Shown here in pieces: positions 15,332 to 62,305 of a stretch of 64,000 nucleotides of DNA (within the stretch, counting starts at the first letter, position 1; each line of letters opens with the position of its first letter). A program made the position numbers and the translations under genes. The DNA lies in assembly GCA_963675595.2 (NCBI GenBank), contig CAXXLZ010000002.1:4608001-4672000 (forward strand), read 5' to 3'. Origin of the DNA: Thermodesulfobacteriota bacterium (lineage in GTDB: Bacteria > Desulfobacterota > Desulfarculia > JACQYL01). A model generated the notes under the pieces. The model did not search any database, was not told the origin of the DNA, and worked only from the letters and a program-made list of their open reading frames with translations.

Positions 15332-15350
15332 ACTGTTTCGAGGAGAGACC

Positions 15351-43691: not shown

Positions 43692-44174
43692 ATGAAACAC
43701 ATTGTCCGCATCAACGTCAACGGCGACCCCTATGAGTTGGCCGTGGATTCCCGGAGCACCTTGCTGGATGTTCTCCGAGAAGACCTTCGCCTCACCGGAA
43801 CCAAAAGGGGATGTGGCGATGGGGACTGCGGAGCCTGCACTGTGCTCTTGGATGGTCGGCCGGTGAACTCCTGCCTTACCCTGGCCGTGGAGGCCGATGG
43901 AAGAGAGGTGACGACCATCGAAGGGTTGGCTCCCTCGGGGTCCGGGCTCCATCCGCTTCAAGAGGCCTTCATCGAGAAAGGCGCGGTGCAGTGCGGCTAC
44001 TGTACTCCCGGAATGATCCTTTCCGCCCTGGCTCTATTGCGCAGGAATCCGAACCCTACCGAGGAGCAGGTACGGGAAGGTCTGAGCGGAAATCTATGCC
44101 GTTGCACGGGCTATAACAAGATTGTCGAAGCCGTCATGGCTGCGGCCGCATCCCGAAAGGAGGAGTCGTCATGA
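43692..44174 (+). CDS. XDH-family small subunit, 2x[2Fe-2S] (HcrC/CoxS-like)
   Basis: GTKRGCGDGDCGACTV, NSCL, QCGYCTPG, GNLCRCTGY. Confidence 0.93.
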   Translation: MKHIVRINVNGDPYELAVDSRSTLLDVLREDLRLTGTKRGCGDGDCGACTVLLDGRPVNSCLTLAVEADGREVTTIEGLAPSGSGLHPLQEAFIEKGAVQCGYCTPGMILSALALLRRNPNPTEEQVREGLSGNLCRCTGYNKIVEAVMAAAASRKEESS

Positions 44175-45064
44175 TACCCAGAATGACCCTCCCTCGATTC
44201 GAGTTCTTTGCGCCGGAAAGCCTGGACGAGGCATTGGAGCTGCTTTCGGAGTATGGAGACCGGGCTCGAGTGAAAGCCGGCGGCACGGACCTGCTCATCA
44301 GAATGCGCAAGCGCTTGGTTACTCCTGATGTACTTATCGGACTGTCCCGACTAAAGCACCTCGAGGCCATCGTATTCGACGAAGAAAAAGGACTGAGTAT
44401 CGGGGCCATGGCCAGGCTGGCCCAAGTGGCCGACAACGAGCATATACGGAATCGGTACCCCGCCGTGGCGTACGCGGCGTCCATCACGGCCACCAATCAG
44501 ATTCGCAATCTCGGAACCGTGGTGGGGAACCTCTGCAACGCATCTCCCTCGGCGGACAACGCCCCGTCCCTCATTGCCATGAAAGGCGAGGCGGTGCTGG
44601 CCTCCGTGAGGGGCAAGCGAATCGTACCATTGGATGCTTTCTTTCTGGGACCGGGAGTCACGGTTCGCGAACACGACGAACTGGTAACGGAAGTGCGCGT
44701 GCTCAGACCAGGGGTCGGAACGGGGTGTGCCTATCAATTCATTTCCATGCGCTCCAAAGTCGATATCGCCGCCGTCAGTGTGGGCGTTATGGTTGTCATG
44801 GATGGAGAGACGATTCGGGAAGCCCGAGTGGTGCTCGGTGCGGTGGCCTCGACTCCTCTTCGCTCTTTGAAGGCGTCCGAAGTGCTGACCGGGGCCAAGG
44901 TCAACGATGCCCTCCTGCAGGAAGCCTCCCGCGCAGCCATGGAGGAAGCCTGTCCTATTTCGGACTGCCGGGCCTGCGACGAATACCGGAAACGCATGGT
45001 GGGTGTGCTGACTCGAAGGGCCTTGCACCAAGCCATATCGGACGTTCGGAACGACCCGAGATAG
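44171..45064 (+). CDS. XDH-family FAD-binding medium subunit (CoxM-like; no HcrB [4Fe-4S] insertion)
   Basis: AGGTDL, IGAM, QIRNLGTVVGNLCNASPSAD. Confidence 0.92.
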   Translation: MIPRMTLPRFEFFAPESLDEALELLSEYGDRARVKAGGTDLLIRMRKRLVTPDVLIGLSRLKHLEAIVFDEEKGLSIGAMARLAQVADNEHIRNRYPAVAYAASITATNQIRNLGTVVGNLCNASPSADNAPSLIAMKGEAVLASVRGKRIVPLDAFFLGPGVTVREHDELVTEVRVLRPGVGTGCAYQFISMRSKVDIAAVSVGVMVVMDGETIREARVVLGAVASTPLRSLKASEVLTGAKVNDALLQEASRAAMEEACPISDCRACDEYRKRMVGVLTRRALHQAISDVRNDPR

Positions 45065-45112
45065 ACCGGAGTTCCGCCGAGTTGCAAACTACTTACGTCA
45101 GGTGGGTGAAGC

Positions 45113-47395
45113 ATGATCGAACGTTCAGTTGTCGGAAAGGATACACCCAGGATCGACGCGCGTCTAAAGGTGACCGGCGCGGCAATCTATACCGACGACA
45201 TGTCTCTGCCCGGCATGCTGCATGGTGCGATTCTCCGTTCTCCTCTGCCGCACGCGCTGATTCGCAACATCGACGTATCGGCGGCGGAGCGGATTCCGGG
45301 CGTCAAAGCCGTGATCACGGGAAAGGACGTTCCATCAATTCGTTACGGCAATTGGAGACTGGTTCCCGAGAGCCAGGATGAGACTCCTTTGGCTCATGAG
45401 AAGGTCCGATTCATCGGGGATGAAGTGGCCGCCGTGGCCGCTGTGGACCGGGAAACCGCCGAAGAGGCGCTGGAACGGATTCGGGTCGAATACGAAGAAC
45501 TTCCCGGATTGTTCGGCGTGGAAGATGCCGTCCGCGAGGGAGCGCCCACAATCCACGAGGCTTCACCCGGCAACATCAGTCTCGACCGGAAGATCGGTTA
45601 CGGCGATTTGGAAAGCGGATTCGCGCAAGCCGACCTGATCCTGGAAGACACCTTCCGCGTGCATCCGGTGAGTCATGCATACATGGAGCCTTGTTCGAGC
45701 CTGGCCGTGGCCGATGGACAGGGCAGAATCACCTTATGGAGCTCAACACAGACTCCTTACATCGTCCAATGCTTGTTGGCGTCCACCCTGGGGTTGCGGG
45801 AGAACGAGGTTCAGGTGATCAAGCCCTACGTGGGCGGCGGCTTTGGGGGCAAAATGGAAATGCGGGTCTGGGACTTCTGTGCTGCGTACCTGGCTCGCAC
45901 GACCGGTCGCCCGGTGAAGTTCACGCTGACTCGTGAGGAGGAGATTCGTACCGGAAGGCGTCGGCATCCTATGGTGATCCGTTCCAAAGTCGGCTTCAAG
46001 AAAGACGGAAGTCTGACGGCCAAGCATTTCCACGTGTTATTGGAGGGCGGCGCCTATAACAGCATGGGGCCGACGGCCACTTTCCTGTGCGGGAATTTCG
46101 GTGCCATGCTTTATCGTTATCCCAATTATCGGTACGAAGGGTACCACGTCTACACCAATAAACCCCCGGCTGGAGCCATGAGAGGTTTCGGCGCTCCTCA
46201 GGCCCTGTTCGCTTCCGAGACCCAGATGAATATTGCGGCGGAAAAACTCGGGATCGATCCCATCGACATCCGCTTGAAGAACGCCATGGTGCCGGGGGAC
46301 GAAATTCCGGACGTGGCCGTGATCAGTTCCTGCGGTTTCGTGGAAAGTCTCAAGGAAGTACGCAAAATGAGCGACTGGGATCGGAAACGAAAGAGGCTCG
46401 GCAAAGGTTTCGGTATCGGTATCGGGTGTTACAGCTTCATCTCCGGCGGTGTATTCAACTGGTTCAATACCCAATACCCGTTTTCTTCCGCCGAGGTTCG
46501 GGCTTACGACGATGGAACGGTCCACCTTTTTACCATGGCGTCGGATATCGGCCAGGGGTCGGATACGGTCCTGGTTCAGATTCTTGCCGAGGAACTGGGC
46601 CTTTCCATGGACCGAGTCCGGATCACTTCGGGCGACACGGCCATGACGCCGAAGGCGGACTTGGGCACTTGGGGCAGTCGAGTGACTCTGATGGCCGGTA
46701 ACGCCGTGATCAAAGCGGCACGCCGGGTGAAGGAAGAGCTGGCCCGTGTGGTGTCGCTCAAATTTAATCTGAACGTGATCCATGAAGTGGATTTCAAAGA
46801 CGGACGGGTCTTCACCAAATCTAGGCCGGATAGGGGCGTGACTTTCGGCGAAGCGGTGGCTTTGGCGATGAAGTACAACCGCGGCGAACAGGTGATCGGG
46901 CGAGGCTCTTACACTCCCAGGGATAAGGGACTGGTTTCACCGGCATTCAGCTTTGGAGCCCAGGTGGCGGAAGTGAAGGTGGATGAAGAAACGGGCAAGG
47001 TCGAGGTGGAGAAGATGTACACCGCTCACGACTGCGGCACCGTGATCAATCCCATCTCCGTTGAGGGCCAACTGGAAGGCTCCATCCATATGGGGTTGGG
47101 CTACGCGCTATGTGAAGAGTTGGTCATGGAAGACGGCCGCACCCTGCCTGAAGGGTTCCTGGATTATAAACTGCCGTCCGCGGTGGACATGCCGCCGGGG
47201 GAATCCGTGTGCATTGAAACCTACGAACCCGAGGGCCCGTTAGGGGCCAAAGAAGCCGGGGAAGGACTGGTCTCCCCGACGGCTCCCGCCATTGCCGAGG
47301 CCGTGTTCCATGCCGTCGGCTACCGCTGCATGGATCTGCCCATCACACCGGACAAAATCTTGGGAATCAGGAAAAGTACCGCGAAAGCCTGCTGA
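45113..47395 (+). CDS. XDH-family molybdopterin-binding large subunit, 4-hydroxybenzoyl-CoA reductase alpha-like
   Basis: KVTGAAIY.DD, HAYMEP, GGGFGGK, AMRGFG, DIGQGS, DLGTWGSRVT, GAKEAGEG; family certain, substrate inferred. Confidence 0.85.
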   Translation: MIERSVVGKDTPRIDARLKVTGAAIYTDDMSLPGMLHGAILRSPLPHALIRNIDVSAAERIPGVKAVITGKDVPSIRYGNWRLVPESQDETPLAHEKVRFIGDEVAAVAAVDRETAEEALERIRVEYEELPGLFGVEDAVREGAPTIHEASPGNISLDRKIGYGDLESGFAQADLILEDTFRVHPVSHAYMEPCSSLAVADGQGRITLWSSTQTPYIVQCLLASTLGLRENEVQVIKPYVGGGFGGKMEMRVWDFCAAYLARTTGRPVKFTLTREEEIRTGRRRHPMVIRSKVGFKKDGSLTAKHFHVLLEGGAYNSMGPTATFLCGNFGAMLYRYPNYRYEGYHVYTNKPPAGAMRGFGAPQALFASETQMNIAAEKLGIDPIDIRLKNAMVPGDEIPDVAVISSCGFVESLKEVRKMSDWDRKRKRLGKGFGIGIGCYSFISGGVFNWFNTQYPFSSAEVRAYDDGTVHLFTMASDIGQGSDTVLVQILAEELGLSMDRVRITSGDTAMTPKADLGTWGSRVTLMAGNAVIKAARRVKEELARVVSLKFNLNVIHEVDFKDGRVFTKSRPDRGVTFGEAVALAMKYNRGEQVIGRGSYTPRDKGLVSPAFSFGAQVAEVKVDEETGKVEVEKMYTAHDCGTVINPISVEGQLEGSIHMGLGYALCEELVMEDGRTLPEGFLDYKLPSAVDMPPGESVCIETYEPEGPLGAKEAGEGLVSPTAPAIAEAVFHAVGYRCMDLPITPDKILGIRKSTAKAC

Positions 47396-49334: not shown

Positions 49335-50723
49335 ATGAAGAAGCCGAAACGTTTGACCCCGGACGAGGCGGAGACCATTTTGGATTCCGTGGCGGACGGG
49401 GTTTTCACCGTAGACAAGGACTACCGGGTTACTTGGTTCAACCGGGCGGCCACTCGGATTACAGGCGTTCCGAGGGAGGAGGCCGTGGGTCGGCACTGCT
49501 GCGAGGTGTTCCGGGCGGAGATCTGTGAGGCCGACTGCGCGCTGAAACAAACCGTGCGAACCGGCAAGCCCCTGGTGAATCGAGCGGTCTATATTGTGAG
49601 ACCCGACGGGCGGCGGGTGCCCATCAGCGTGAGCACCGCTCTTCTGTTGGACCGGAAGGGGGAGGTCATCGGGGGCGTGGAAACCTTCCGGGACCTCAGC
49701 TTAGTGGAAGAACTTCGCAAAGAGGTGGAGCGTCGCTACACCTTCGAAGACATCATATCCCGCAATCACGCCATGCGGGACATTTTTTCCATTTTGCCCG
49801 AGGTGGCCCGGAGCGACGCCACGGTGCTGATCGAAGGAGAAAGCGGAACCGGCAAGGAATTACTGGCGCGCGCCATTCACAATCTTTCGTCCAGGAATGA
49901 CAAAGCCGCGGTGACGGTGAACTGCGGCGCCCTTCCGGACACGCTTCTCGAATCCGAGTTGTTCGGCTACAAAGCCGGAGCCTTTACCGACGCCAAAAAG
50001 GACAAGCCGGGACGGTTCGCCCAGGCCGAAGGAGGTACCCTGTTTCTGGACGAAATCGGGGACCTGTCTCCCGCTTTGCAGGTGAGGCTGCTCAGGTTCC
50101 TTCAAGAAAGAACCTACGAGCCTTTGGGATCGAACCACACGTTGCATGCCGACGTCAGGATTTTGGCCGCGACCAACCGTGAGCTCCAGGGTGAAATGCA
50201 GAACGGGCGTTTCCGCCAGGATCTTTATTACCGAATCAACGTCATGCGGCTTCGGCTACCGCCTTTGAGGGAAAGGAAAGAAGATATTCCACTGCTTGTG
50301 GAGCACTTTGTCTCCCATATGAACCGCGTGAAGGGAAAGAATATCGAAGGTCTTTCCAACGACGCCCTGTCCGCCTTTATGGAGCATGATTGGCCGGGCA
50401 ACATACGGGAGTTGGAAAACGCCATCGAGCACGCCTTCATTCTTTGCCCGGGCGGACTCATCGAACGCCGACATCTCCCGGAACAGTTTCGTTCGTCGTT
50501 TTCGGTTCCCGACGGCATGGTGGGGAGCGGAACCACTTTGGCGGAAGTCGAAGCGAGAATCATCTATGAGACGCTGATCCGGCATCAAGGGAACCGCCAA
50601 GCCACGGCCAACGAACTGGGCATCGACAAGACCACCCTGTGGCGGAAGATCAAGAAGCTCGGACTCGACGTCCCGCGAGGCGGAAACCGCTCGGAGTCCC
50701 CCGAAAACGAAGAAACTCAATGA
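49335..50723 (+). CDS. PAS-AAA-Fis sigma54 activator, OrpR-like
   Basis: PAS with C-x8-C-x3-C ([14 protein letters not shown]); [43 protein letters not shown]; Fis HTH. Confidence 0.9.
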
Positions 50724-50900: not shown

Positions 50901-51404
50901 CTATCCGATGAGCACCATGCTGTACCAGGCCGGCATCATCTTTCCGTCTTTGTCAAATTCCACTTTGAATCCCAACGGGGTCAGCGTCTTGCCGAAGTCG
51001 ACTCCGTAAGCGTCCATGGAAGGGCGCGCGAGATGGGGAAAGCGGCAGGGTTCGGGAAAGGCGCATTCCTCGCACTGGACACAGAGCGCAAGCGCCATGG
51101 AATACCCGAAGCCGAGCATCATGGATTCCTTCTCCACCCCGAGGGCGACGTCCTGGCCGAGCTTGGCGTCCGTGGTCTTGATGACGACGGCCTTATCGTA
51201 TTCTTTGAAAGCCTCGTCGAACTGCTCTTGGGAGAAATGGAGATTGGGAGGACACGTCCAGTACTTGCCCCATCGTTTGCACCCGAACCGGCATTTCAAA
51301 TGCGACCTCGGGTCGAACGCCACCTGCGAGGTGTCGATCAGTTTGGCTTCGACGGCACCCAATTCCAGCGCCTTTTCCACCAGGACTTCAGGGTTCGCTT
51401 CCAT
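50901..51404 (-). CDS. DUF2284 domain (Cys-rich predicted metal-binding) protein
   Basis: CRFGC..WGK.WTCPP, CVQCEEC..PEPCRFP..ARPSMDAYGVD; start at ATG 51404. Confidence 0.85.
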   Translation of the reverse strand: MEANPEVLVEKALELGAVEAKLIDTSQVAFDPRSHLKCRFGCKRWGKYWTCPPNLHFSQEQFDEAFKEYDKAVVIKTTDAKLGQDVALGVEKESMMLGFGYSMALALCVQCEECAFPEPCRFPHLARPSMDAYGVDFGKTLTPLGFKVEFDKDGKMMPAWYSMVLIG

Positions 51405-51723
51405 TCCTTCTCCTCTTAATCGGGCCGTTATAAAAGGCCGGTTGCCACAGGCAGGCAAAGAAACGACGACATGCAACGCGCGCAAATCCCAAGCAATGAG
51501 ACGGACCCAAGAAGTATGCCGCTGTGACGAGGGGTCCAGCGCGACGCGGCGGATCGGGTTCTAAACCGACCTGATGGGCCTCACCGAGCGGAAGGCAGGC
51601 TACCGACATATGGGGGCGGAAGTCAATCGGGATTTCGTATGGACCGCAAAGATGATAAACAAAAAGAGGGTGCCGCGTATGGTGCGGCATTTCAGGAGAG
51701 TCCGCCGCATAGAGGCGGACTCC

Positions 51724-52602
51724 TTATTTCGGGGGTTCCTCTTCTCCCTGCGTCGGAGTTTTGGTGAGCATGCCCAGAATTTGCTGCAACGCTTTACGCT
51801 TGGATTCCGTGGAGCCGGCTTCGACCCAGCCGTAGCCCGCGTCGTGAAGCTGCAGGGCCAAGTCCAGGAACGGAGTGGGTTCAACCCCCGCCTGTTGAAG
51901 GAATTCCCGATCGGCCAGTATGTCTTCCGTGGGGCCCTGGCGCAGGACCCGTCCTTCGGAAAACACCGCGATTTCGTCCGCCCAAAGACAGGCGAGGTCC
52001 AGGTCGTGGGTGGCGAAAACCAGGGTGGTTCCATTCCGGAAAAGTTTCTCTAGCAGGTCCAGCAGATTCTTGACGCCGCGGGTGTCCAATCCGGCGGTGG
52101 GTTCATCCAGAATCAGCACTTCAGGCTTCATGGCGGCGATGCCGGCGATGGCCACCCGCTTCTTCTGCCCAAAGCTGAGCATGTGTGTGGGGCGTTCGGC
52201 CAGGGATTCAATGTCGAGGGCTTTGAGGGTGTCGCGCACCCGTTCCCTGGTTTCCTCTTCGGAGAGGCCCAGGTTCAGCGGACCGAAAGTCACATCCTGG
52301 TACACGTTGGCTGAAAAAAGCTGGTCGTCGGCATCCTGAAGCACCAATCCCACCCGTCGACGCCAGCTTTTCTTCGCATCGCGGTTGTATCGGGCGGGGA
52401 GGCCGTCCAGGAGGATTCGGCCCTTCTGAGGTTTCAGGGTACCGTTGAGATGCAGCAGAAGGGTGGTTTTCCCCGCGCCGTTGGGTCCGAGCACGGCCAG
52501 ACGACGACTTTTTCGGATTTGCAGGTTCAGCTTGTTCAGGGCTTTGACGTGCCCCGGGTAGGTAAATTCGATCTCATTAGCTTCCAGGATAACCGAGTTC
52601 AT
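51724..52602 (-). CDS. cbiO: ECF cobalt transporter ATPase CbiO
   Basis: GPNGAGKTT, DDQLF, LSFGQKKRVAIAG, ILDEPTAGLD; start at ATG 52602. Confidence 0.9.
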   Translation of the reverse strand: MNSVILEANEIEFTYPGHVKALNKLNLQIRKSRRLAVLGPNGAGKTTLLLHLNGTLKPQKGRILLDGLPARYNRDAKKSWRRRVGLVLQDADDQLFSANVYQDVTFGPLNLGLSEEETRERVRDTLKALDIESLAERPTHMLSFGQKKRVAIAGIAAMKPEVLILDEPTAGLDTRGVKNLLDLLEKLFRNGTTLVFATHDLDLACLWADEIAVFSEGRVLRQGPTEDILADREFLQQAGVEPTPFLDLALQLHDAGYGWVEAGSTESKRKALQQILGMLTKTPTQGEEEPPK

Positions 52603-53350
52603 GCAGGAATCCGTTGCAGGCCAGACTGGTCGCGACGACCACCAGAAGAAGGCAGGCAATAAGGGTGAGGGTTTTCGAGGAAACGGGCTTCTCCTCCGTC
52701 AGGAACTTGAATTCTCCTTCGAATCCTCTGGCCGAGAGACCGGTTTCCATTTGGCGAACCCGGCCCATGGTCCGGTCGAACAAGGCGGCCACCAGAAGAC
52801 TCAAAGAGCGACAACTGGTCATGAATCCTTGATATCCCAAACGCGCGGACTGGGATCGATGGGCCGCGGCTACCGTGTCCGAAGCGACGAAAATCAGGCG
52901 ATACGTGAGGAGCATCAGCTCAATGACGGCGGCGGGCACTCGGACCCGGGACAGAAGGGGCACCAAGTCGGTCATGGGGGTGGTCAGAGCGAGAAACGAC
53001 AAGCACGATACGGCCGCCAGGGACCTAAGCACCACCTTCAGGGCCGTGTTGACGCCTTCGGGAGAGAGAGCGAAGTGCAATCCATGAGACCAATGTACGG
53101 ACACAAACAGCATGGGGGTGCTCAACAGCAAAAAGCCCACGGGCAGGGCCAGTATCTTCAGATAAAACCCTCCCGGAATCTTTGCGCCCCAAATGGATGC
53201 CAGGGAAACGAGCACGATGATGATCAAGGCGGCCGGCATTGGAGGCAACAGAAGACTGAGGAAAAGCATGCCTCCGGCGAAGAGGAGTTTCTCCACCGGA
53301 TGGCGCCGACTCCATTGATTCGTGTAAGCTATGGTATCAATGTGAAACAT
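52577..53350 (-). CDS. cbiQ: ECF cobalt transporter T component CbiQ
   Basis: IDTIAY.N...HP.EK, LALTTPM, YRLIF, QSARLGY, LSARGF. Confidence 0.92.
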   Translation of the reverse strand: MFHIDTIAYTNQWSRRHPVEKLLFAGGMLFLSLLLPPMPAALIIIVLVSLASIWGAKIPGGFYLKILALPVGFLLLSTPMLFVSVHWSHGLHFALSPEGVNTALKVVLRSLAAVSCLSFLALTTPMTDLVPLLSRVRVPAAVIELMLLTYRLIFVASDTVAAAHRSQSARLGYQGFMTSCRSLSLLVAALFDRTMGRVRQMETGLSARGFEGEFKFLTEEKPVSSKTLTLIACLLLVVVATSLACNGFLHELGYPGS

Positions 53351-53654
53351 GTTCCGGGCTTTTCTCCTGAAACTTGGCGCGAGCGCGACGATACCCTAAA
53401 TAATATGCCAGAACGCCGGCTCCCAATGCGGCTTGAAGGGCGAAGAGCATACTTTCGATTTCCCCGCTCGGAGGCTCCCAGAAGGGTTCGAACCAAGGTT
53501 TGTATCCGGGATGGCTTTGGACGATGACTCCCTCCGCCTGCCCGTCGGCTCCTGCGAAGGGTTCCTCGCGATCCGAAAGTCCGGGAATCATCAGGGGAAT
53601 CACCGCCAAGGCCACAACCAGGGCGATCAAAATTCCGTTTCGTTTGAAAATCAT
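53337..53654 (-). CDS. cbiN: cobalt transport protein CbiN
   Basis: [38 protein letters not shown]. Confidence 0.95.
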
Positions 53655-54322
53655 TGTACACCTCCGGCGAGGATTGCGGTTTCCTCCAACTCGTCGCGGC
53701 TGTACTTCAGCACCAGATTCACCACCAGTACGGTAAGCAGCCCTTCGGAAACCGCAAGTGGGATTTGGGTCACCGCGAACACCGAAAGGAATTTAATCGC
53801 CGCACCCTGGAAACCGCTCACCGGGTCGGGAAAGGCCACGGCCAGTTGTAGGGCGGTGACCACATAGGTGGTGAGGTCCCCGAGGGTCGCGGCAAGGAAG
53901 GTCGAGAATCCCAAGGAACGACCCGTTCCACGGAGAAGACGAAAAAGCGCGTAGGCCACCCAGGGGCCGGCCACGGCCATGGAAAATACATTGGCGCCGA
54001 GGGTGGTCAATCCGCCGTGGGCGAGAAGAAGCGCCTGGAACAGAAGCACGATGGCCCCGAGGAGGGGCATGACCGCAGCTCCAAAAAGTATGGCCCCTAA
54101 ACCCGTGCCTGTGGGATGAGAGCAACTGCCTGTGACGGAGGGGAGTTTCAGGGCGGAAAGGACGAATACGAAGGCTCCACATGCCGCGAGCAGCAGTTTG
54201 GCCTTGGGCTTCTCTCGAAATATTTTAACCACCTTCCGCGCGCTCACGACGACGAAGGGCAGCGACACCGCAGTCCAAGCGGCCGCATGAGCGGGCGGCA
54301 AATAACCTTCCATGATATGCAT
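53651..54322 (-). CDS. cbiM: ECF cobalt transporter S component CbiM
   Basis: MHIMEGYLP metal-binding N-terminus, [37 protein letters not shown]; start set at MHIMEG (54322). Confidence 0.95.
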
Positions 54323-55072
54323 ACGCGTGATTCCTCCTTGCGGTTTGGATTTCACCTCGGAGTCCGGCCGGACCCTTTTCGCTATTGGACGATCATTGCA
54401 GCCTTCCTCTCGGGAACCTATAACGGAGGCATGTCTTCATGTGATGCGCAGTAACTTTCTGGAACTTAATTTTGAATAGACGATATTGTTGCCGAAAAAT
54501 ACCCGCGCCGTTCACACGCTTCTCAGAATCGTCGCCGAAGCCGGTATCGTTAATCTTATTGACGGCCCAAGTCACTTCTTTTGCTTTTGAATAGGATCGA
54601 AAAATGTTACTCTATTATCCGATCCAAAAAAGGGACATCCAATATAGTCCCTTTTCAAATATCGGTATGCAATATAGCGATCGATGATCAACACTTTGGC
54701 GCTGAAGCGCTCTCTCCAATCCCTTGCCGCGAGGAAGATATCTATTATTCGGTATCTTGCGGAATAGACGCCGCCCGCGACCTCCCTTGAGAGGGCCGGT
54801 AAATCAGAGAGCAAACCTGATGCTAAGAGATAATGCCCTAGTTGAAAATTAATTCACAACGGATAGTCGTCGATTCCGACTTTGTTGGTTTTTATGGCTG
54901 TGCCCTAATCTTCGTGAGCGAAGTTTAACACAAAATCCGGAATCCTCCAAAATTTCTTGAACCGTTCACAAGAAAAAAGTACCATATAAATGGTAATCAT
55001 GTCAATTTAAGAAGCTTGTGGATATGCTTCGGCCTATAGTTCGTGAGTTTACTATGGGTTTGTTTCTATACA

Positions 55073-55091
55073 TATACATACCATAAGTATA
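55073..55091. promoter_or_regulatory. candidate CsoR/RcnR-family operator
   Basis: TATAC-ATACCATAA-GTATA (ATAC-N9-GTAT) about 150 bp upstream of the CsoR-family gene. Confidence 0.5.
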
Positions 55092-55242
55092 AGCCGGGAG
55101 TTTCCTCCCGGCGTTGCCCGGGAAACTATCATTTTCGGTCACGTGGCAGGTTGGTTTTCGGGTTCGAGTAATGGTCGTTTCCCAAGAAACTCAAACCCGG
55201 CTTCAATATGGACGGGTTCAGGTTTAACACAAGGAGAATCGC

Positions 55243-55518
55243 ATGGCGCTCTGCGGTGAAGACCATCAGAAGCTGCTGACCCGCATTAATCGCATCGAGG
55301 GTCAGGTGCGGGGGCTTAGGAAGATGGTGCAGGAGGACCGGGATTGTATGGAGGTGCTGAAGCAAATCGCAGCCGCCGGCGGGGCCCTTAGATCCCTGGC
55401 CATGGTCCTTCTTGAAGACCATTTGAAGGGTTGCGTGGCTTCGGCCATTCGAACGGATCAATCGGAGAATGAACTGATTCACCAAGTTATTGAAGTGTTT
55501 AATAAATTCAGTAAGTAA
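55243..55518 (+). CDS. CsoR/RcnR-family metal-sensing transcriptional repressor
   Basis: RINRIEGQVRGL..MV..DRDC.EVL.QIAA..GAL, EDHLKGCV (C-H-C fingerprint). Confidence 0.93.
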   Translation: MALCGEDHQKLLTRINRIEGQVRGLRKMVQEDRDCMEVLKQIAAAGGALRSLAMVLLEDHLKGCVASAIRTDQSENELIHQVIEVFNKFSK

Positions 55519-55595
55519 GCTCCGGTTTGAGCCGAGTGCGCCCAAAACGGGTTTTGATCTGAGTGTCTTTTTAACCCCCGGCACGGGAGGCCGCA

Positions 55596-56648
55596 ATGGA
55601 GAAGATGACGCCCAAAGAAAGAGTGCTCGGACTGTTTCGCCGAGACCCCATCGACACCATGCCCATTTTCAGCGGACTTTCCATGGCGGCGCTCCCGGCA
55701 TTGCGGGAGGCGGGCCTGGTTTTCTCTCAGGTCCACACCCGTCCGGACCTCATGGCGCGAGCCGCAGTAGTCTCATCCCGCAGAATGAATTTCGACTGCA
55801 TCGTGGTCCCCTTCGACATCACGATTCTTTCCGAAGCTCTGGGCAATCGCCCCAACTTTTATGAGGACGCCTCCGAAGTGGTCTTTCCGACGGTTCCCGA
55901 AAAGATCTGGAAGGACCTGGAAGAGATCAGCATTCCCGACGACATACTTGAGCGGGGCCGAATTCCCATGATTTGTGAAGCGGTTTCCATCATCAAGCGA
56001 GAGGCTCCCGAATACCCCGTGGGGGTATGGCAAAGGGGGCCTTTCACGCAGATGGGGCAACTTTTCGAGCTGGAAGAGGTTTTGAAGGCTTCCTTCAAAG
56101 CCAAAGCCAAAGTGGAAGCGGCCCTGGAAAAGCTGGCGGAACTGGTTTCGGCCGCTGGACGCCTGTGGTTGGACGCCGGAGCGGACTATATCACTTTGAG
56201 CGAACCCAGCGGATCCGGAGACGTGTTGCCTCCCCGCCTTTTCAAGAGTCTTATCCAACCGAAGCTCGCCCAAATTCTGGAAGAGTGGCCGTCTCCCAAG
56301 GTCTTGCATGTCGCGGGGAAGACCGACGGAATCATCGAAATGATGAAGGACTGTGGAGCCGACGGCATTGCCGTGGACAAGAAAAGCAACATAAAGGACA
56401 TTCGAACGAAGATCGGGGACGAACTGCTTCTTTTCGGAAATTTCGATGTCTATGACTTACCCTGCAAACCCGAGACGACCGTGGAACATACCGAGGCCGT
56501 GATCAAAGGGATCATCGACGACGGAGTGGATGGGGTATGGCCGGGGTCGGACCTCTGGCCCGACATGAAAGAGGAGAACATGCGGGCCGTTGTTCGCACC
56601 GTGCACGAATACGGGGCAAAGCCCAGTCCTGCGGTGGGGAGAACCTGA
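55596..56648 (+). CDS. MtaA/CmuA (URO-D superfamily) methyltransferase-like protein with degenerate Zn site
   Basis: MTPKERV, VPFDIT..SEALG, GRIP...EAV, GPFT, AGADYI..SEPSGS, LFGNFD; HxC reads HVA and PGC reads PGS. Confidence 0.85.
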   Translation: MEKMTPKERVLGLFRRDPIDTMPIFSGLSMAALPALREAGLVFSQVHTRPDLMARAAVVSSRRMNFDCIVVPFDITILSEALGNRPNFYEDASEVVFPTVPEKIWKDLEEISIPDDILERGRIPMICEAVSIIKREAPEYPVGVWQRGPFTQMGQLFELEEVLKASFKAKAKVEAALEKLAELVSAAGRLWLDAGADYITLSEPSGSGDVLPPRLFKSLIQPKLAQILEEWPSPKVLHVAGKTDGIIEMMKDCGADGIAVDKKSNIKDIRTKIGDELLLFGNFDVYDLPCKPETTVEHTEAVIKGIIDDGVDGVWPGSDLWPDMKEENMRAVVRTVHEYGAKPSPAVGRT

Positions 56649-56674
56649 GAAGGAGAGGGCGGGCCGAACGCCGG

Positions 56675-57499
56675 TTACGGAGTCTCGTGAGGGCGGTCCC
56701 TGACCAACAGGTGGGACTTCAGCAATTTGAACATGGCGATGACTTTGTCGGCGAAGGTGGTGCCGGAGTTGTCCGCGACCAAGTCGGTGAGATCGTTGAG
56801 AAAGAGACGGTCCTCTTCAAGAAGATAGTCCTGCTCCTTCCACCAGGAGTTCTTCAACTCCCTCGCGAAGGCGACGTTTCTGGCGGCCAGAGTGTTCAGC
56901 GGGGAGTATTCCCGAAATTTTCGGCAGAGAAAAGTGGCTCTCACCCAACGGTGAGAAAGCAGCATTCGGTAGTTTTCCGACTCCTGACGTTCACAGTTGA
57001 TTCGGAAAAAACAGAGATGCGCCTGGGGTTCGCCGTGACCCAGTTCAATGGCCAGTTCGGTGCAGGCGTGCTCCTTCGCAGCTTCGCGAAGGTGCTCCAC
57101 CACGTGTCGAAAGAAATTGACACCGGATCCTGAAACCGGAAAAAGCGGCATGATTTGCTCACTGAAACTGGGTCCCACGAACTGTCGGCGTATTTCCAGG
57201 ACGCATTTGGCCGTTTCCCGGTCCAACCACCCTTGAAAGGGCAGGGCGGGCAACCCTTGAACAAGCTCTTCGCAAACATGGACCAGGAATTCTCTATCGG
57301 CGACTTCTCCGGAGACCGGCTGCGCCGGTATGGATCCCTGCGCGGAGCCATAGGACCGCCGGTCGGCATGCACCACTAGTTTCACGTGCGGCCGACTCTT
57401 CGGATCGATGTTCTCCAGGAAGTCTTGAATGAAGTGCTCCGCCTCGGCCTTGATGTCCCTCGTTTGATCGGTTCCGGTCTTCGTCGGCGGTGAGCTCAT
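56675..57499 (-). CDS. hypothetical protein (274 aa)
   Basis: Long ORF with RBS-like GGAG upstream, fills the gap between MtaA genes; no recognised family. Confidence 0.7.
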   Translation of the reverse strand: MSSPPTKTGTDQTRDIKAEAEHFIQDFLENIDPKSRPHVKLVVHADRRSYGSAQGSIPAQPVSGEVADREFLVHVCEELVQGLPALPFQGWLDRETAKCVLEIRRQFVGPSFSEQIMPLFPVSGSGVNFFRHVVEHLREAAKEHACTELAIELGHGEPQAHLCFFRINCERQESENYRMLLSHRWVRATFLCRKFREYSPLNTLAARNVAFARELKNSWWKEQDYLLEEDRLFLNDLTDLVADNSGTTFADKVIAMFKLLKSHLLVRDRPHETP

Positions 57500-58092
57500 T
57501 TCGCGTCTCCCTTCCGCTCCTTCCTAATCGTGGTTTTGCAGCCCGGTTCGTACTCGAAAAGCCGGGCCCCGGTCGTTCGGTGACATCCTTGCGTCTCGAT
57601 CGGTGCGGTTCTCGTTGACTCCCACGATGGGAGCCCTTACCGACAGACTATAGCATGACGGTCCATGAAATCACAGTAGCCGAGTTGGGAAATCTGCGGC
57701 TTGTCCGACCGCATGGAATTTCCCTTTCTTGGCATCCTGCCGTTCGTTTTTGAGGTGTTGAGGAGAACTCGCTTGACCGGTGGGAGAGACCCGAACGGAG
57801 CTTGGGCCAGAAAAGGACGGCGGTGGAGACCGGGCGTACCTGAATGAGTGGTGGAGCCGCGGCGGGAGGCGAGTAGGGATCCCGGCGGCATAAAACCTTC
57901 TCCCTCCGGATGCCTGGGGGGGATGGAGGGCGAGGTACACAGGCGAAACAGCTTCCCCCGGGATCCCAAGGGACAACAATGAAAGGGCGGCGATCGACGC
58001 CGAAGATTTCTTGGGAGGGCGCGGAAGCCCCTTTTAGACGAGAGGCTCCCTGCCCGGTCGCTACAGTTCAGCGTGATCGCAGCCGATGAGGT

Positions 58093-59136
58093 TTAGTATT
58101 TGCCGTAAATTTCCGCCGCTTCCATGATCGCTTGAGCATTCAGGAAACTGGCGTTGGGCGGGAATTCGCATCCGGGGGACAAGATGAATTTTCCACCGGC
58201 CTTGAGTTCCTCGATTTCTTTCTTGCATTCTTCCTTGACCATGTCCGGAGTTCCCAGGAAGCAGTAGCGGGCCGGCTCCATGTATCCGCAAATGGTGGTC
58301 TTGTCGCCCCATTTCTCCTTCGTTTCGGTCCAGGTCGCGCAATCATCGGGCGTGTAGGCGCAGGAAATGAGCACGGGTTCCATGGCTTCGATCTGGGCGT
58401 CGAAGTAGATGTTCTGGCCGCAGTTGTGCACCATGACCATGCAGCCGCATTCGCGAATGGTGTCGGCCAGGCGTTTCGCAAAGGGCGCTTCGATCTTCTG
58501 CCACAGGCTCTTCTTCATGATGGTGCCGGAAGCATAGAGAGTGTCCAGCATGATGGCGGGTACGCCGGTTTTGGCCAATGCCTTGATGTAGTCCACCAAC
58601 ACCTCAGTGATCACTTCCTGGGCCTTGATCACGGCTTCGGGGTGTTTCATGCAATCCAGGAACATCCTCTCCGCTCCGCGCATCATGCTGAGAATTCCCA
58701 GGGGACCGAACACGAAGGCAACCACGGGAACCTCGGCGCCCTTTTCATTCTGGAGAATCTCATGCATTTTGATGAAGCCGCTCATGCGAGGCGTTTTGGT
58801 GGGGTCGATCCGTTCCACCTTGGTCAGATAGTCGTCGGGGGTCACGATTACGGGCTTGTCGTAGTTGGGGTGAGCGGTGTCCTCCACGGGAAAGACCACT
58901 TCCTGGCCGAAATCGGCGCATTCGACGGACAGGTCGACTAAGGTGACGAAGCAATCAAAACCGAACATCTCCTGCGCCTGGATCCAGGATTTGGCCGCAA
59001 GCTCATAGTCTTGAGACCACTCCCCATAGGTGATTCCGTAGACCCGGCGGGATGCCCCACAAATCAGGGGAGTTGCGGGAACACGGTCTGCTTCTTTGCC
59101 CTGCAGGCAGGCTACCACTCTTTCCATCGAAGTCAT
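58093..59136 (-). CDS. MtaA/CmuA (URO-D superfamily) methylcobamide methyltransferase, Zn motif intact
   Basis: MTSMERV, DRVP, DLSVECADFG, GPLG, VHNCG (HxC), GGKFILSPGCE; start at ATG 59136 after AGGAGG. Confidence 0.88.
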   Translation of the reverse strand: MTSMERVVACLQGKEADRVPATPLICGASRRVYGITYGEWSQDYELAAKSWIQAQEMFGFDCFVTLVDLSVECADFGQEVVFPVEDTAHPNYDKPVIVTPDDYLTKVERIDPTKTPRMSGFIKMHEILQNEKGAEVPVVAFVFGPLGILSMMRGAERMFLDCMKHPEAVIKAQEVITEVLVDYIKALAKTGVPAIMLDTLYASGTIMKKSLWQKIEAPFAKRLADTIRECGCMVMVHNCGQNIYFDAQIEAMEPVLISCAYTPDDCATWTETKEKWGDKTTICGYMEPARYCFLGTPDMVKEECKKEIEELKAGGKFILSPGCEFPPNASFLNAQAIMEAAEIYGKY

Positions 59137-59693
59137 GACTTCCTCCTTCTCGGTTGACGTTGGTTCACCAGGATCATAAGTTCGAACTCCCGTGAGGGAG
59201 TCGGATCGATCGTGTCGTCGCCGAAGCGGATCTCCTTTCTCTGCCCGGGACGTACACAACAATCCTTGCTATGCGTGCCTCCAATACCGTCAGGCGACTG
59301 CGGCTCGGTCGCACCATTCCGGTTGCATCGGATGGCCGAGCCGTTGAGCCGCGTTTGGAACCGATGTAAGTGGTCTGGTTGGGAAGTGGTGAAGTCGAAC
59401 TCGTCGAAGCAGGTGTGGATTCGCTTCTGCTTCGTTAAAGCGCCGTCCCTCGGCGGCTCGGCGGGCAAGCGGCGAGATCGCTTTGTGAACGATGTGTCTT
59501 TTCAAGGGGTGCTCAACACGATCAATACGGAAAGGCTCGGAGGCGAGGCGGTAGTCCGCAGTGCGAGGCATGACGGCTTCGCTTCCTTCTTCCCCGATGG
59601 ATGCTTTCCGGTTCGGCTGAACGGCGATTGGGTATCCGAAGGCCTCGTGCTCCATGCTGCAACCGTGTTCGCAATCCGGTCCGGCCAAAGAAA

Positions 59694-60308
59694 TTACTCC
59701 TCCCAGTTGAGGACGATGTCTCGGAGTTGTTCGATTCCCACTCCGGAAAAGGTGGAAAGACGAACGATTTCCGCAGTTTCATTGAATTGTCTTAACTTCT
59801 TCTCGCTTTCTTCAATGGTTGTGGAGTCCACGGCATCCACCTTGCTCATGGCCAGAATGTCGGCGTCCTGGACCTGAGCGACCACGAGTCTGCCGAGCAT
59901 ATCCATGTCGAGAAGCTCGGCCGGTCGTGTGGTGTCGAAGAGGACAATGGCCGGTCCCAAAGAAATTCGAGCGTCCCTACCCCCCATTCGGGCCGCCATT
60001 TTAACCTGATGGGGAATGGCGACCCCGGTAGGTTCCACCAGAACATGCTCGGGTTTAAACTCCCGATAGAGTGTGGCCAGCGTCTTGGCGAAGCTGGAAG
60101 CCACTTCGCAGCAGATGCATCCTCCACCGATGTCCTTCACTCGCATGCCGCTTTCTTGGATCACTTTGCCGTCCACCGGAATTTCACCGATTTCATTCAC
60201 CACGAGGGCCACCTTCCGGTTTCCCGAGTCGGCGATTTCCGCGGAGAGTCTGAGAATGAAGGTGGTCTTTCCACATCCCAGAAAGCCTGCAATTTGAGTG
60301 ATTTTCAT
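59694..60308 (-). CDS. CobW/COG0523-like G3E GTPase (short form)
   Basis: GFLGCGKTT, VNEIGE, GGCICC, VEPTGVA, QV..ADI, SKVD. Confidence 0.9.
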   Translation of the reverse strand: MKITQIAGFLGCGKTTFILRLSAEIADSGNRKVALVVNEIGEIPVDGKVIQESGMRVKDIGGGCICCEVASSFAKTLATLYREFKPEHVLVEPTGVAIPHQVKMAARMGGRDARISLGPAIVLFDTTRPAELLDMDMLGRLVVAQVQDADILAMSKVDAVDSTTIEESEKKLRQFNETAEIVRLSTFSGVGIEQLRDIVLNWEE

Positions 60309-60563
60309 GAAATCTCCGTGCCGGCGTTGTGTCGTTGTGCGGAAGCGAATGAGGTCATCGGGATGACCGTGCCTTCACGGTCCGGTGCGATGATCGAAGA
60401 GGAGCCATGCCGCGGCGACGAGGTCGGAATCTTCCGAAGATCAATCTCCCGAGGTCAACGGAAATTCCTTTCACACGGTGCGGGCGCGGCACCGGGATCA
60501 AGCTCGCTTTTCGGGGTTCGGCGTCGCCGACGCAATCGTCCCGAGGCACGGTTCCTCTTCAGG

Positions 60564-61232
60564 CTATGCTTTGGACTGAACCTCGCGCAGGCGACCGATC
60601 ATCTTGATGCCCTCGGTCACGGCGTTGCCCGCGCTCTCTGCGTAACCGTCGGCGCCGAACAGGGTGGAAACGTCCCGGGTCACGGGAGCGCCGCCGAGCA
60701 TGATCATCACATTGGGATTCTTCTCTTTGATCATCTTGATGACCTTCTTCATGCCCAGCATCGTGGTGGTCATCATGGCGCTCATGGCCACGATTTCCGA
60801 ATCCGTACGCATCTGTTCCTTGACGAAATTCTCCAGAGGCACGTCGCGGCCCAGGTCGTAAACTTCAAATCCGGCCACGTCGAACATCATCTTGACCAGG
60901 TTTTTGCCGATGTCGTGAACGTCGCCCTGGATGGAGCCGATGACGACCTGGCCCTTCATCTTTCCACTTTGCTCCTGGGGCACGTGGGGGCGGAGGATGT
61001 CCAGACCGGCATAAAGGGCGTCGGCGCACATGAGCACTTCAGGCACGAAGTATTCGTTGCGCTCATAGAGATCTCCCACGATCTGCATGCCGGCCGCGAG
61101 ACCGTCCATGATCGCTTCCAGTGGGTCCACCTTTTCGTCGAGAGCCTGTTGCGCGAAGCTTTTCACTCCCTCTTCGTTGTACTCCACGACCGAGTCGCTT
61201 AAACCTTTGAGGATGTCTTCCTTGCCTGCCAT
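60564..61232 (-). CDS. corrinoid (B12-binding) protein of MtaC/MttC type
   Basis: GL..GM..VG.LYE..EYFVPEVL, GDVHDIGKNLV (DxHxxG), DLGRDVP, SAMMTTTM, LGGAPVT, GADGYAE.A; start at ATG 61232. Confidence 0.95.
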   Translation of the reverse strand: MAGKEDILKGLSDSVVEYNEEGVKSFAQQALDEKVDPLEAIMDGLAAGMQIVGDLYERNEYFVPEVLMCADALYAGLDILRPHVPQEQSGKMKGQVVIGSIQGDVHDIGKNLVKMMFDVAGFEVYDLGRDVPLENFVKEQMRTDSEIVAMSAMMTTTMLGMKKVIKMIKEKNPNVMIMLGGAPVTRDVSTLFGADGYAESAGNAVTEGIKMIGRLREVQSKA

Positions 61233-61335
61233 ACTGATTCCCCTTCCTTTGCTGAAGCATTCTTGAACGGACGGGCCCCTGGGATTGCGGAAGCCGCCTC
61301 CTCGACTTCCGCACATGTTCGCTTGCGATAATAAT

Positions 61336-61352
61336 ATACACTATAGGGGTAC
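61336..61352. promoter_or_regulatory. candidate CsoR/RcnR-family operator upstream of corrinoid operon
   Basis: ATAC-ACTATAGGG-GTAC: TAC-N9-GTA with a G-tract, about 105 bp upstream of the corrinoid gene start. Confidence 0.6.
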
Positions 61353-61894
61353 TGAATAGTCCGAGGGATGAATTCCGGCTAGACGCCGGATGATTTATTG
61401 GTGAACCTGCATTATGGAAAGAATTTTGGGATAGACGAAGTTAGTTATAAACGTAAGAAAGCCTTAAAGAAATAAATAACTTGGATATTCTATTGCTAAT
61501 GACAATGATTGGTGTGGCATTCAATCGGAATTACATATGATATGTTTAACATATAAGGAATAATGCCTATACAAAAGTTGGGATGGGGCGAAACTTGACG
61601 TTCCATGAAGGGCGGTCTCGATGGGAATCTCTTCTTCCGGAAGCCCGTCACGCGGGCGCGATCTCCCGGTTCCGATGAGGGGCACTGGCCTCGCCGGCGA
61701 ATATCTGCTACAGAGGGAGTCCCCGCACGAGTTGAGCGGGCGGCGCTTCTCCCCGCGCCCGGATGTTTCAAAAGAAGTCCAAGTCGGCGACGGCAGGCCG
61801 TCGAATCGTTCGGTGGGTTCTGAATTCGCCGGGGGGAATCCGGGCGCGTACCGCGTCACAAATCGGGAATATCCGTCAAACGAGGTGGAAGGCC

Positions 61895-62305
61895 ATGAAA
61901 GGTTGGTTTTGGCCCGGCATGATGGCCATGCTGTTGTGGGGCTTGTGGGGCTTCTTTCCCAAGCTCACCGTCCGTCATATTAATCCGGGCAGTGCCCTGG
62001 TGTTTGAAACCTTGGGCGGCATGATCGTGGCTTTGGTGGTGCTTGTCGTCCTTGGGTTCAGAATCCAGACGGATCCGGCCGGGGTGGGGTATGCGCTGTT
62101 TACCGGTGTTTGCGGTTTTCTCGGGATCCTTTTCTACCTCAAGGCGGTAACCGTAGGCAGGGTTTCCCTGGTGGCGACCATGACCGCTCTGTATCCCGTG
62201 GTGAGCGTCCTTCTCGCTCACTTTGTCCTGGGCGAGCCGCTGACCCTGAAGGAGGGCGCGGGCATCCTCCTGGCATGCCTCGCCATTCTTCTCATGGTGC
62301 TGTGA
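61895..62305 (+). CDS. single-repeat EamA/DMT family transporter
   Basis: LLWGLWGFFPK, FYLKA...GRVSLV..MTALYPVV..LLA...LGEPLT; start at ATG 61895. Confidence 0.88.
   Translation: MKGWFWPGMMAMLLWGLWGFFPKLTVRHINPGSALVFETLGGMIVALVVLVVLGFRIQTDPAGVGYALFTGVCGFLGILFYLKAVTVGRVSLVATMTALYPVVSVLLAHFVLGEPLTLKEGAGILLACLAILLMVL

Follow-up and report, generated by a model that had tools for sequence, protein, structure and literature searches.

A URO-D methyltransferase and corrinoid protein locus of a Thermodesulfobacteriota bacterium, a possible satellite of a corrinoid-dependent demethylation system

Gene content of the locus

The window analysed here is a stretch of 64 000 nucleotides from a Thermodesulfobacteriota bacterium (assembly GCA_963675595.2, contig CAXXLZ010000002.1, positions 4 608 001–4 672 000). 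At 50901–61352 it contains a locus that encodes two MtaA-like proteins of the URO-D family, here called MT_A and MT_B, together with a corrinoid protein, a CobW-like GTPase, a CbiMNQO cobalt transporter, a CsoR-family repressor, a DUF2284 protein and the product of an open reading frame (ORF) of unassigned family, ORF274 (Table 1). An initial annotation had named all of these genes, and Pfam and TIGRFAM comparisons find each of them where it had been placed. The AT-rich gaps that it described near 54.45–55.1 and 61.38–61.6 kb are likewise borne out, with a GC content of 0.496 at 54001–55000 and 0.53 at 61001–62000 (0.53–0.61 elsewhere). The term 'island' under which the locus had been described is not supported by composition. 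Its GC content and its GC content at third codon positions (0.58–0.78 for the locus genes and 0.65–0.74 in seven genes outside) match those of the flanks and give no sign of recent horizontal acquisition. The genes for MT_B, CobW, the corrinoid protein, DUF2284 and CbiMNQO are all intact; their ribosome-binding sites are good and they use codons as the host does. The earlier reading had overlooked a frameshifted relic of a gene termed F3 at 59343–59673.

The two MtaA-like proteins match PF01208 with E values of 1.5e-55 and 2.8e-53, are 21% identical to each other and are encoded in opposite orientations, with MT_A on the + strand and MT_B and the corrinoid gene on the − strand. A Pfam scan of 62 window ORFs detected no MtaB, MttB, RACE or MtrH/tetrahydrofolate methyltransferase, and tblastn searches of the whole window with RACE, MtrH, CbbQ, VWA and second-CobW queries returned nothing above threshold. 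A folate methyltransferase is present neither upstream in the window nor downstream in the 2.8 kb to which the window is limited past the corrinoid gene. In seven intergenic gaps searched for hidden genes, the F3 relic was the sole match to any related locus, and the ORFs at 57637–57979, 59212–59877, 59290–59688 and 54572–54814 have no family match. An Rfam scan of the gaps gave no riboswitch or noncoding RNA at the gathering score or at E ≤ 1, and sigma-70 promoter and terminator scans remained at chance level (4 against 4.8; 21 against 14.7).

Table 1. Features of the locus, in window coordinates
Feature	Position	Strand or location	Evidence or reading
DUF2284 Cys-rich predicted metal-binding protein, 167 aa	50901..51404	-	PF10050, E 1.5e-29
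cbiO, energy-coupling factor (ECF) cobalt transporter ATPase	51724..52602	-	TIGR01166, 270 bits (cut-off 212); start set at ATG 52602, frame open from 52659
cbiQ, ECF T component	52577..53350	-	TIGR02454, 161 bits (cut-off 112)
cbiN	53337..53654	-	NF002780, 131 bits (cut-off 84)
cbiM, cobalt S component	53651..54322	-	TIGR00123, 292 bits (cut-off 184)
AT-richer divergent promoter region, cbiM/csoR, 920 bp	54323..55242	no strand	GC and gene layout
Palindrome ATAC-N9-GTAT	55074..55090	upstream of csoR	candidate CsoR/RcnR-family operator
CsoR/RcnR-family repressor	55243..55518	+	PF02583, E 2e-27
MT_A, MtaA/CmuA-type URO-D protein	55596..56648	+	PF01208
Palindrome, third copy, ATACCCCGTGGGGGTAT	56012..56028	inside MT_A coding sequence	pattern match
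ORF274, 274 aa	56675..57499	-	no Pfam or NCBIfam match
MT_B, URO-D-fold methyltransferase, proposed methyltransferase I	58093..59136	-	PF01208; H237-C239-C323
F3 relic, frameshifted	59343..59673	-	matches to F3 of relatives in two frames
CobW-like (COG0523) GTPase domain	59694..60308	-	PF02492
Corrinoid protein, monomeric, 222 aa	60564..61232	-	PF02310 and PF02607; DVHDIG
Palindrome ATAC-N9-GTAC	61336..61352	upstream of corrinoid-cobW-MT_B transcript	candidate CsoR operator

MT_B and its conserved operon

The zinc triad of MT_B, located by alignment to 4AY7, is intact, and the triad motifs occur in all of the best 120 homologues listed out of 1044 matches at E ≤ 1e-20 (among 2648 candidates). 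The predicted model of MT_B is a URO-D barrel with a predicted local distance difference test (pLDDT) score of 95, and its best match in the Protein Data Bank is Methanosarcina mazei MtaA (4AY8/4AY7; TM score 0.80–0.82, 20% identity). Its scores of 126, 115 and 99 are below the cut-offs of PRK06252 (244), TIGR01463 (235) and MtaA (400), and in a quick tree its clade is separate from the reference families with a support of 100. Homologues with 47–71% identity are spread over Desulfobacterota, Actinomycetota, Bacillota and some archaea. The URO-D family is known to include O-, S- and halogen-demethylases, and the His-Cys-Cys site has been linked to sulfur and selenium methyl transfer (PMC10418091); MtvB, OdmB, VdmB, MtoB, CmuA, MecE and CdmB are given as methyltransferases I (MT1s) of the UroD superfamily in an excerpt of PMC13222342. 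Because URO-D proteins serve as MT1 in many systems, a URO-D gene that adjoins a corrinoid gene is an ordinary candidate for MT1 and, by analogy, MT_B would be the natural MT1 of the locus, which the initial annotation had described as lacking one.

When GTDB (one genome per species) was scanned with the MT_B alignment, 233 places were confirmed; the 80 best were retained and correspond to 79 related loci (handles L001 onwards), mostly from Desulfobacterota with others from Actinomycetota, Bacillota and a few archaea. The gene counts, made by tblastn, are biased to close relatives and include many short loci; they are given for all 79 loci with the 37 loci of at least 20 kb in brackets. The most constant partners are a CbbQ-type ATPase in 57 (30), F3, a gene of about 170 aa located 3′ of CobW, in 54 (28), CobW itself in 52 (28), archaea included, a VWA protein in 51 (29) and a second CobW in 45 (22). 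DUF2284 follows with 33 (19), CbiM with 26 (15), a corrinoid protein within the flanks with 17 (11), three more being at 34% under the 35% threshold, ORF274 with 13 (5), RACE with 10 (9), MT_A with 9 (8), MtrH with 8 (7) and CbiN with 2 (2). DUF1638 is found in 20 of the 79 loci. CsoR was detected in none of the 79 and is specific to the window locus.

The usual Desulfobacterota operon has the order cbiM-cbiQO-regulator-[ORF274]-cobW-F3-cobW2-MT_B-cbbQ-VWA-DUF2284-DUF1638. In the window cobW2, cbbQ, VWA and DUF1638 are missing, CbiMNQO is of another kind, and csoR and an MT_A without zinc cysteines are gains. Its DUF2284 protein is an orthologue of the operon gene (most homologues in the related loci have 53–73% identity), and its F3 relic matches the relatives' F3 in one frame at the N-terminus (E 9e-4) and in another at the C-terminus (E 2.5e-6). 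With these losses, changes and gains, the set of eight genes at the window locus is a derived arrangement, a reduced and rearranged copy of two larger modules. Co-conservation of that set, proposed as a synteny check of the initial annotation, is not observed, with CsoR in 0/79, CbiN in 2/79 and no cysteine-less MT_A by MT_B. Most relatives' operons carry a different, longer CbiM that is 31–37% identical to that of the window, so metal uptake, judged by these sequences, appears to have joined the MT_B operon at least twice.

The second CobW sits before MT_B in Desulfobacterota and Actinomycetota (L002–L073, e.g. L007:9338–9925) and has an in-frame TGA in the motif GG-U-xGC in all 28 displayed sequences; the 45 motif matches comprise 44 TGA and one TGC. 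It fits NF041053, a predicted selenoprotein family (PMC13188914, in excerpt), with its C-terminal part alone scoring 178.2 against a cut-off of 180, and the MT_B operon gives this family a genomic context. The window CobW has no C-terminal domain and a GGGCICC motif without TGA; it is 68–75% identical to its counterparts in relatives and, with 128.7, remains under the NF041053 cut-off of 180. The predicted complex of MT_B with the window CobW scored 0.46 (the best of three controls 0.00), with contact agreement of at least 70% between runs and a partner pLDDT of at least 75. The mark that it passes was reached by 116 of 157 solved pairs and two of 215 mismatched pairs, but scores up to 0.60 comprise only 18 solved pairs and both mismatches, and a pass at the 0.46 level is more often wrong than right unless the pairing is likely beforehand. 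Co-occurrence and this prediction weakly suggest that CobW is a metallochaperone of MT_B.

Directly downstream of MT_B, loci L001–L055 have a CbbQ/NorQ-type AAA+ ATPase and a VWA protein of 750–970 aa (e.g. L053:11197–12039 and L025:12365–14668). The relatives share the CbbQ_C-type ATPase and the VWA protein with the CbbQ/CbbO and NorQ/NorD chaperones, and they differ from these in that the apparent client is a corrinoid methyltransferase; none of the three partner genes, including that of the selenoprotein GTPase, has a counterpart in the window. In the literature consulted, mostly open-access papers, we found no description of an AAA+/VWA chaperone or selenoprotein GTPase paired with a corrinoid methyltransferase.

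Further genes occur around the MT_B operon. Genes for TSCPD-domain, SMC-like AAA, thioredoxin-like, further CobW and aquaporin proteins flank it in L002, L013, L014, L022, L024, L025, L041 and L052, and genes of the same kinds make up the 'insert' of the Desulfofundulus kuznetsovii TPOSR operon (PMC10907483, in excerpt). ArsM-like S-adenosylmethionine methyltransferases are present in six of the 79 loci (L018, L024, L025, L033, L049 and L061), with NF041536 (ArsM/DUF2284 selenoprotein) as their best match, below its cut-off. In the archaeal loci L043 and L045 (9261–14713), the corrinoid protein and MT_B genes face those for CobW, F3 and a hydantoinase/oxoprolinase-family protein, a minimal archaeal form of the MT_B module. 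L028 and L029 are near-identical and are labelled Enterobacterales and Desulfobacteraceae; the Enterobacterales label of L028 is probably a binning or naming error.

MT_A, the corrinoid protein and comparison with known systems

At the zinc-site positions MT_A has H238, A240 and S318, both zinc cysteines being lost. The best 120 homologues listed from 226 matches (8000 scored) comprise 100 with His-Cys-Cys and 20 without both cysteines; never is one alone lost. In a 55-row FastTree containing the window protein, 19 full-length cysteine-less members (one fragment was left out) and 35 His-Cys-Cys rows (26 sampled from the 100 and nine from the related loci), the cysteine-less sequences form one clade with a support of 100, and its members are intact at 57–73% identity. 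The scores of MT_A, 211 for PRK06252 (cut-off 244), 182 for TIGR01463 (235) and 185 for MtaA (400), are below the cut-offs, and sequence comparison indicates that neither MT_A nor MT_B matches any characterised enzyme compared here. Of the undescribed two-MtaA system proposed in the initial annotation, an uncharacterised corrinoid methyl transfer tied to cobalt uptake and a metallochaperone stands, with cbiMNQO and CobW at the locus, but the two MtaA-like genes are not equivalent, since MT_B alone has the triad. No cysteine-less MT_A lies next to MT_B in the 79 loci, where the MT_A orthologues are all His-Cys-Cys. After MT_B, L026 has a broken C-terminal MT_A remnant (3310–3468) right before a corrinoid gene 81% identical to that of the window, which is a further case of decay and rearrangement.

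The window corrinoid protein scores 206.9 bits with TIGR02370 (cut-off 215.3), and its DVHDIG sequence conforms to the base-off/His-on motif DxHxxG. It is 76–81% identical to the proteins of L026 and L028 and 61% identical to that of L071, where the corrinoid gene is part of a recurrent set that we call the trunk; by these identities it appears to be an orthologue of the trunk protein. The nine related loci with an MT_A orthologue include seven with an MtrH/MtgA-family gene and five with RACE. The absence of a tetrahydrofolate methyltransferase and of an activator, also stated in the initial annotation, is true of the window, but these genes do exist in homologous loci. The MtrH-family neighbours resemble MtgA, a methylcorrinoid:tetrahydrofolate methyltransferase (6SJ8, E 1.5e-33), below the MtgA cut-off. 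The gene order is MT_B-corrinoid-RACE-MtrH-PNPOx-MT_A in L071 and RACE-MtrH-PNPOx-MT_A-ferredoxin-CobW-CbbQ-VWA-MT_B in L077, and MT_B is beside RACE-MtrH-MT_A in L056, L060, L070 and L077. The window MT_A belongs to the family of this corrinoid-RACE-MtrH trunk, and its subclade has lost the zinc cysteines. A His-Cys-Cys paralogue of MT_A, P0169 (54% identity), suggests a second trunk locus in the host genome.

The trunk order corrinoid protein-RACE-MtrH-PNPOx-MtaA/CmuA in L071 and L077 recurs from Desku_0050–0060 of D. kuznetsovii 17T, as described in the parts of PMC5770442 and PMC10907483 consulted, on which the statements in this paragraph about D. kuznetsovii and its relatives rest. The L071 trunk proteins have 224, 655, 312 and 131 aa, and those of Desku_0056–0060, in the same order, 221, 649, 311 and 131 aa; the link is one of order and size through relatives and not a direct sequence comparison. 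The corrinoid and MtaA-like proteins of L071 and L077 are orthologous to those of the window (61% and 38–41% identity, respectively). The Desku_0056–0060 operon is upregulated about 100- to 3000-fold with methanol plus cobalt, and the log10 label-free quantification (LFQ) value of Desku_0060 is 9.6–9.8 with methanol plus cobalt and 6.9–7.4 without cobalt (both PMC5770442). The 17T operon also has a CobW/P47K gene and cobalt-dependent expression. Its donor module is MtaB/MtaC, for methanol, whereas MtaB, RACE, MtrH and PNPOx are all missing from the window, whose MT_A is without the zinc cysteines. A corrinoid-RACE-MtrH trunk without mtaB is found in strain TPOSR and in D. thermosubterraneus, the species of L077 (PMC10907483). 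Because the same trunk is seen both with mtaB (17T) and without it (TPOSR and D. thermosubterraneus), it appears to take exchangeable donor modules.

In the heliobacterial loci L065, L067 and L072, MT_B lies inside type I mlp clusters, and the corrinoid proteins there fall together with that of mlp. Since MT_B is thus found on different corrinoid trunks (the folate trunk and type I mlp), we infer that it behaves as a substrate module. Sulfur-assimilation genes occur in these loci, namely MetY in L072 and, in L065, a NifH-like gene, a gene of the nitrite/sulfite reductase family and an ABC transporter of the NMT1 type. Published type I mlp clusters (PMC10418091; including M. voltae SdmABC) have several MtaA-like proteins and a corrinoid protein with no folate methyltransferase in the cluster, so multi-MtaA clusters of this kind are already known. 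Their sites are His-Cys-Cys with some cysteine-less members (Mlp1), and the MT_B orthologues are guests in the heliobacterial clusters. The window shares with them the combination of two MtaA-like proteins with a corrinoid protein. It is not a type I mlp cluster, because it has no Ram/RACE gene and its core genes are on opposite strands, and homologous loci do carry MtrH (seven of the nine with MT_A). Gene order was used to assign the Mlp1, Mlp2 and Mlp3 references, which come from Acetoanaerobium noterae (L080) and heliobacteria, all of them species that PMC10418091 lists. MT_B as an Mlp2 was rejected, with 26% identity to the reference Mlp2s (36% among themselves) and an approximately unbiased (AU) test p of 0.0095 for a joint clade in quick trees. 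The MT_A clade (support 99) is sister to Mlp1 and Mlp3 at 23–24% identity, compared with 42% among Mlp3s; a joint clade with Mlp3 is not rejected in quick trees (AU p 0.105).

The Methanosarcina proteins MtaA, MtbA, MtsA and MtpA have the same fold and zinc triad as MT_B. MtsA/MtsB and MtpA/MtpC demethylate dimethylsulfide or methylmercaptopropionate with a corrinoid protein (PMC7374477, in excerpt), and MtsA and MtpA are likened to MT_B by description, not by sequence; with respect to MtaA and MtbA, both window proteins are below all NCBIfam cut-offs and MT_B has 20% identity to 4AY7. The Cmu, Mec and Cdm halomethane systems combine a URO-D MT1, a corrinoid protein, an MtrH-type or other folate methyltransferase II (MT2), RACE and extra URO-D genes. 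MT_B and MT_A are 24% and 23% identical to CmuA and neither is fused to a corrinoid domain; MT_B shows no supported grouping with it. The MT_B match to CdmB is weak (E 3e-4), the accessory genes differ, and the ten-gene mec cassette is set apart by description, as its gene content differs from the list published in bioRxiv 2021.08.30.458270 (in excerpt). From the three-component corrinoid demethylases in general, the window has a DxHxxG corrinoid protein and a URO-D barrel capable of an MT1 role.

The CsoR-family repressor has C35, H60 and C64, the C-H-C fingerprint of the scheme for CsoR/RcnR metal sites, as well as N-terminal C4 and H8, and it scores below the RicR, FrmR and RcnR cut-offs. 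The palindrome at 55074 presumably resembles known CsoR/RcnR-family operators. The pattern ATAC-N9-GTAY has three copies in the 64 kb, all at the locus (five strand matches against 0.39 expected); the copy inside MT_A may be a codon coincidence. Co-regulation of both methyltransferase transcripts through the candidate operators is plausible. ORF274 is a real gene of a small family (65 matches at E ≤ 0.001) and in some relatives its orthologue is just upstream of CobW. There was no Pfam match at the cut-off in 11 family members and no Foldseek match at E ≤ 0.001 for the model (pLDDT 92.5). The best structural match (Z 7.7, root-mean-square deviation 3.0 over 81 aligned residues) has a Z score within the range of common arrangements, and the predicted fold is at most weakly zincin-like (DUF5781-like), without an HExxH motif.

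A PAS sigma-54 activator gene (49335–50723, +) converges on DUF2284; a sigma-54 or PAS/LuxR regulator is often inside the relatives' operon, and its likeness to the window activator is confined to the AAA domain (39–43%). A single-domain EamA transporter gene (61895–62305, +), divergent from the corrinoid operon, is probably unrelated to it because no homologue occurs in the 79 loci. Further away on the + strand are consecutive genes for a short-chain dehydrogenase, a zinc alcohol dehydrogenase and two enoyl-CoA hydratases (11992–16115), which may resemble the benzoyl-CoA ring-cleavage genes had/oah/dch, a NifU-like gene flanked by two NifB/NifX-type genes (16382–17757) and a three-gene molybdoenzyme of the xanthine dehydrogenase family with 2Fe-2S, FAD and Mo subunits (43692–47395).

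Proposed role and alternatives

We suggest, with a probability of about one half, that the locus represents a satellite, reduced and rearranged, of a corrinoid-dependent demethylation system of anaerobes with MT_B as its MT1; the architecture as such we regard as probable. MT_B would be the substrate-specific methyltransferase, its His-Cys-Cys zinc binding a soft heteroatom of the donor and the methyl group being handed to the corrinoid protein in its Co(I) state. A RACE protein from another locus would reactivate the corrinoid protein, and an MtrH/MtgA-family enzyme, also encoded elsewhere, would move the methyl group to tetrahydrofolate for Wood–Ljungdahl oxidation. CobW would load metal into MT_B, CbiMNQO would supply cobalt, and the CsoR-family repressor would make the two methyltransferase transcripts respond to metal supply by way of the common palindromes. 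The cysteine-less MT_A would be a diverged duplicate of the trunk MtaA-like enzyme without a thiol-activating zinc, and would have a different substrate or act as a noncatalytic partner. The donor atom would most likely be the sulfur of a small methyl-sulfur compound such as dimethylsulfide, methanethiol or methylmercaptopropionate; this guess, for which we would give somewhat less than even odds, is favoured because of the triad and the sulfur-assimilation setting in heliobacteria.

Several observations weigh against this proposal. The RACE and MtrH that it calls for in the host genome are putative. A corrinoid gene is within the flanks of only the 17 loci counted above, and some of the most constant partners, namely CbbQ, VWA and the selenoprotein GTPase, are missing from the window; MT_B may need them in trans, or the locus may be decaying. 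The triad does not fix the substrate, as CmuA, the chloromethane MT1, has it too. MetY is present in one of the 79 loci and the sulfur context is thin outside the heliobacteria. In L003 an MtaB gene (529–1905, with a RACo-domain gene) lies 8 kb upstream of the MT_B operon in the same orientation. The palindrome pattern was drawn post hoc from the sites at 55074 and 61336, and in the relatives its 23 matches in 1.2 Mb have no consistent position and are not conserved upstream.

An unlikely alternative is a self-contained relay without folate, in which MT_B moves the methyl group of a methyl thiol to the corrinoid protein and MT_A passes it to a non-thiol acceptor, or the reverse. Both URO-D genes accompany a single corrinoid gene and have candidate operators in common, the monophyletic cysteine-less clade (20 rows) is intact and therefore maintained, and CdmB is a URO-D methyltransferase that works without zinc (PMC13222342, in excerpt). 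On the other hand, the MT_A orthologues that accompany MT_B in the relatives have the cysteines and mostly MtrH, and RACE would still be required from elsewhere. Quite unlikely, in our view, is a salvage of methyl-selenium or methyl-sulfur as in type I mlp, with MT_B freeing selenide or sulfide for biosynthesis rather than energy. MT_B orthologues do lie within the listed type I clusters of three heliobacteria, a selenoprotein GTPase is part of the relatives' operon (44 of the 45 motif matches have TGA) and ClMlp2 methylates selenide (PMC10418091). Against it, MT_B is not an Mlp2, the heliobacteria retain their own Mlp2 and Mlp3 beside MT_B, and the association with MtrH and RACE points to folate.

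We find it improbable that MT_B demethylates a methyl halide or methyl-metalloid like CmuA or MecE. CmuA has the same triad, mec cassettes also combine more than one URO-D protein with RACE, a corrinoid protein and an enzyme of the MtrH type, and ArsM-like genes and aquaporins are present in six and three of the 79 loci. Set against this are the distance of MT_B from CmuA and CdmB noted above and, according to the consulted part of bioRxiv 2021.08.30.458270, which also describes the cassettes, the report of close mec homologues only in dichloromethane and chloroform degraders. Very improbable is a role of MT_B as MT2 or relay enzyme for an MtaB- or MttB-type MT1 encoded elsewhere, as L003 might suggest. 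Desku_0055, a 354-aa URO-D protein of 17T that is likened to MT_B by its position in L071, is upregulated about sevenfold with methanol plus cobalt, but it is about 1000-fold less abundant than MtaA and MtaB, and the mtaB-less TPOSR operon is barely expressed on methanol (PMC10907483; these data again from excerpts). Only one MtaB and no MttB were found among 241 neighbouring proteins scanned, which are 120 plus 121 of 178 further candidates, the rest having been dropped as likely wrong-frame ORFs, repeats or oversize. That the copy in the window has no function today and is decaying as a redundant remnant is a far-fetched reading: F3 is frameshifted and CbbQ, VWA, the second CobW and DUF1638 are absent, but the remaining genes are intact, with the translation signals and codon usage described above, and the locus has acquired a regulator together with sites that match it.

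In the satellite reading preferred here, the window is a derived, incomplete copy, and the interest lies more in the MT_B family than in the window locus. We found no description of the MT_B clade with its maturation cassette in the literature consulted; the conserved unit is larger than, and different from, the eight-gene set. Sulfate reducers reportedly dominate dimethylsulfide and methanethiol oxidation under anaerobic conditions in some sediments, and no paper naming their demethylase for these compounds was found in that literature. In its fullest form, which is speculative and rather unlikely as a whole, the proposal would make MT_B the enzyme with which sulfate reducers and other anaerobes of sediments demethylate dimethylsulfide and methanethiol, feeding folate through the corrinoid-RACE-MtrH trunk and matured by two CobW GTPases, one of them a selenoprotein, and a CbbQ/VWA AAA+ chaperone, with the window adding a zinc-free MtaA paralogue that has a new acceptor or a scaffold role. 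MT_B is a testable candidate for methylated-sulfur consumption by sulfate-reducing bacteria, and its presence in cultured strains makes its substrate directly testable. Whatever the substrate, a corrinoid methyltransferase with its own AAA+/VWA chaperone and selenoprotein GTPase would, if true, represent a new route of maturation.

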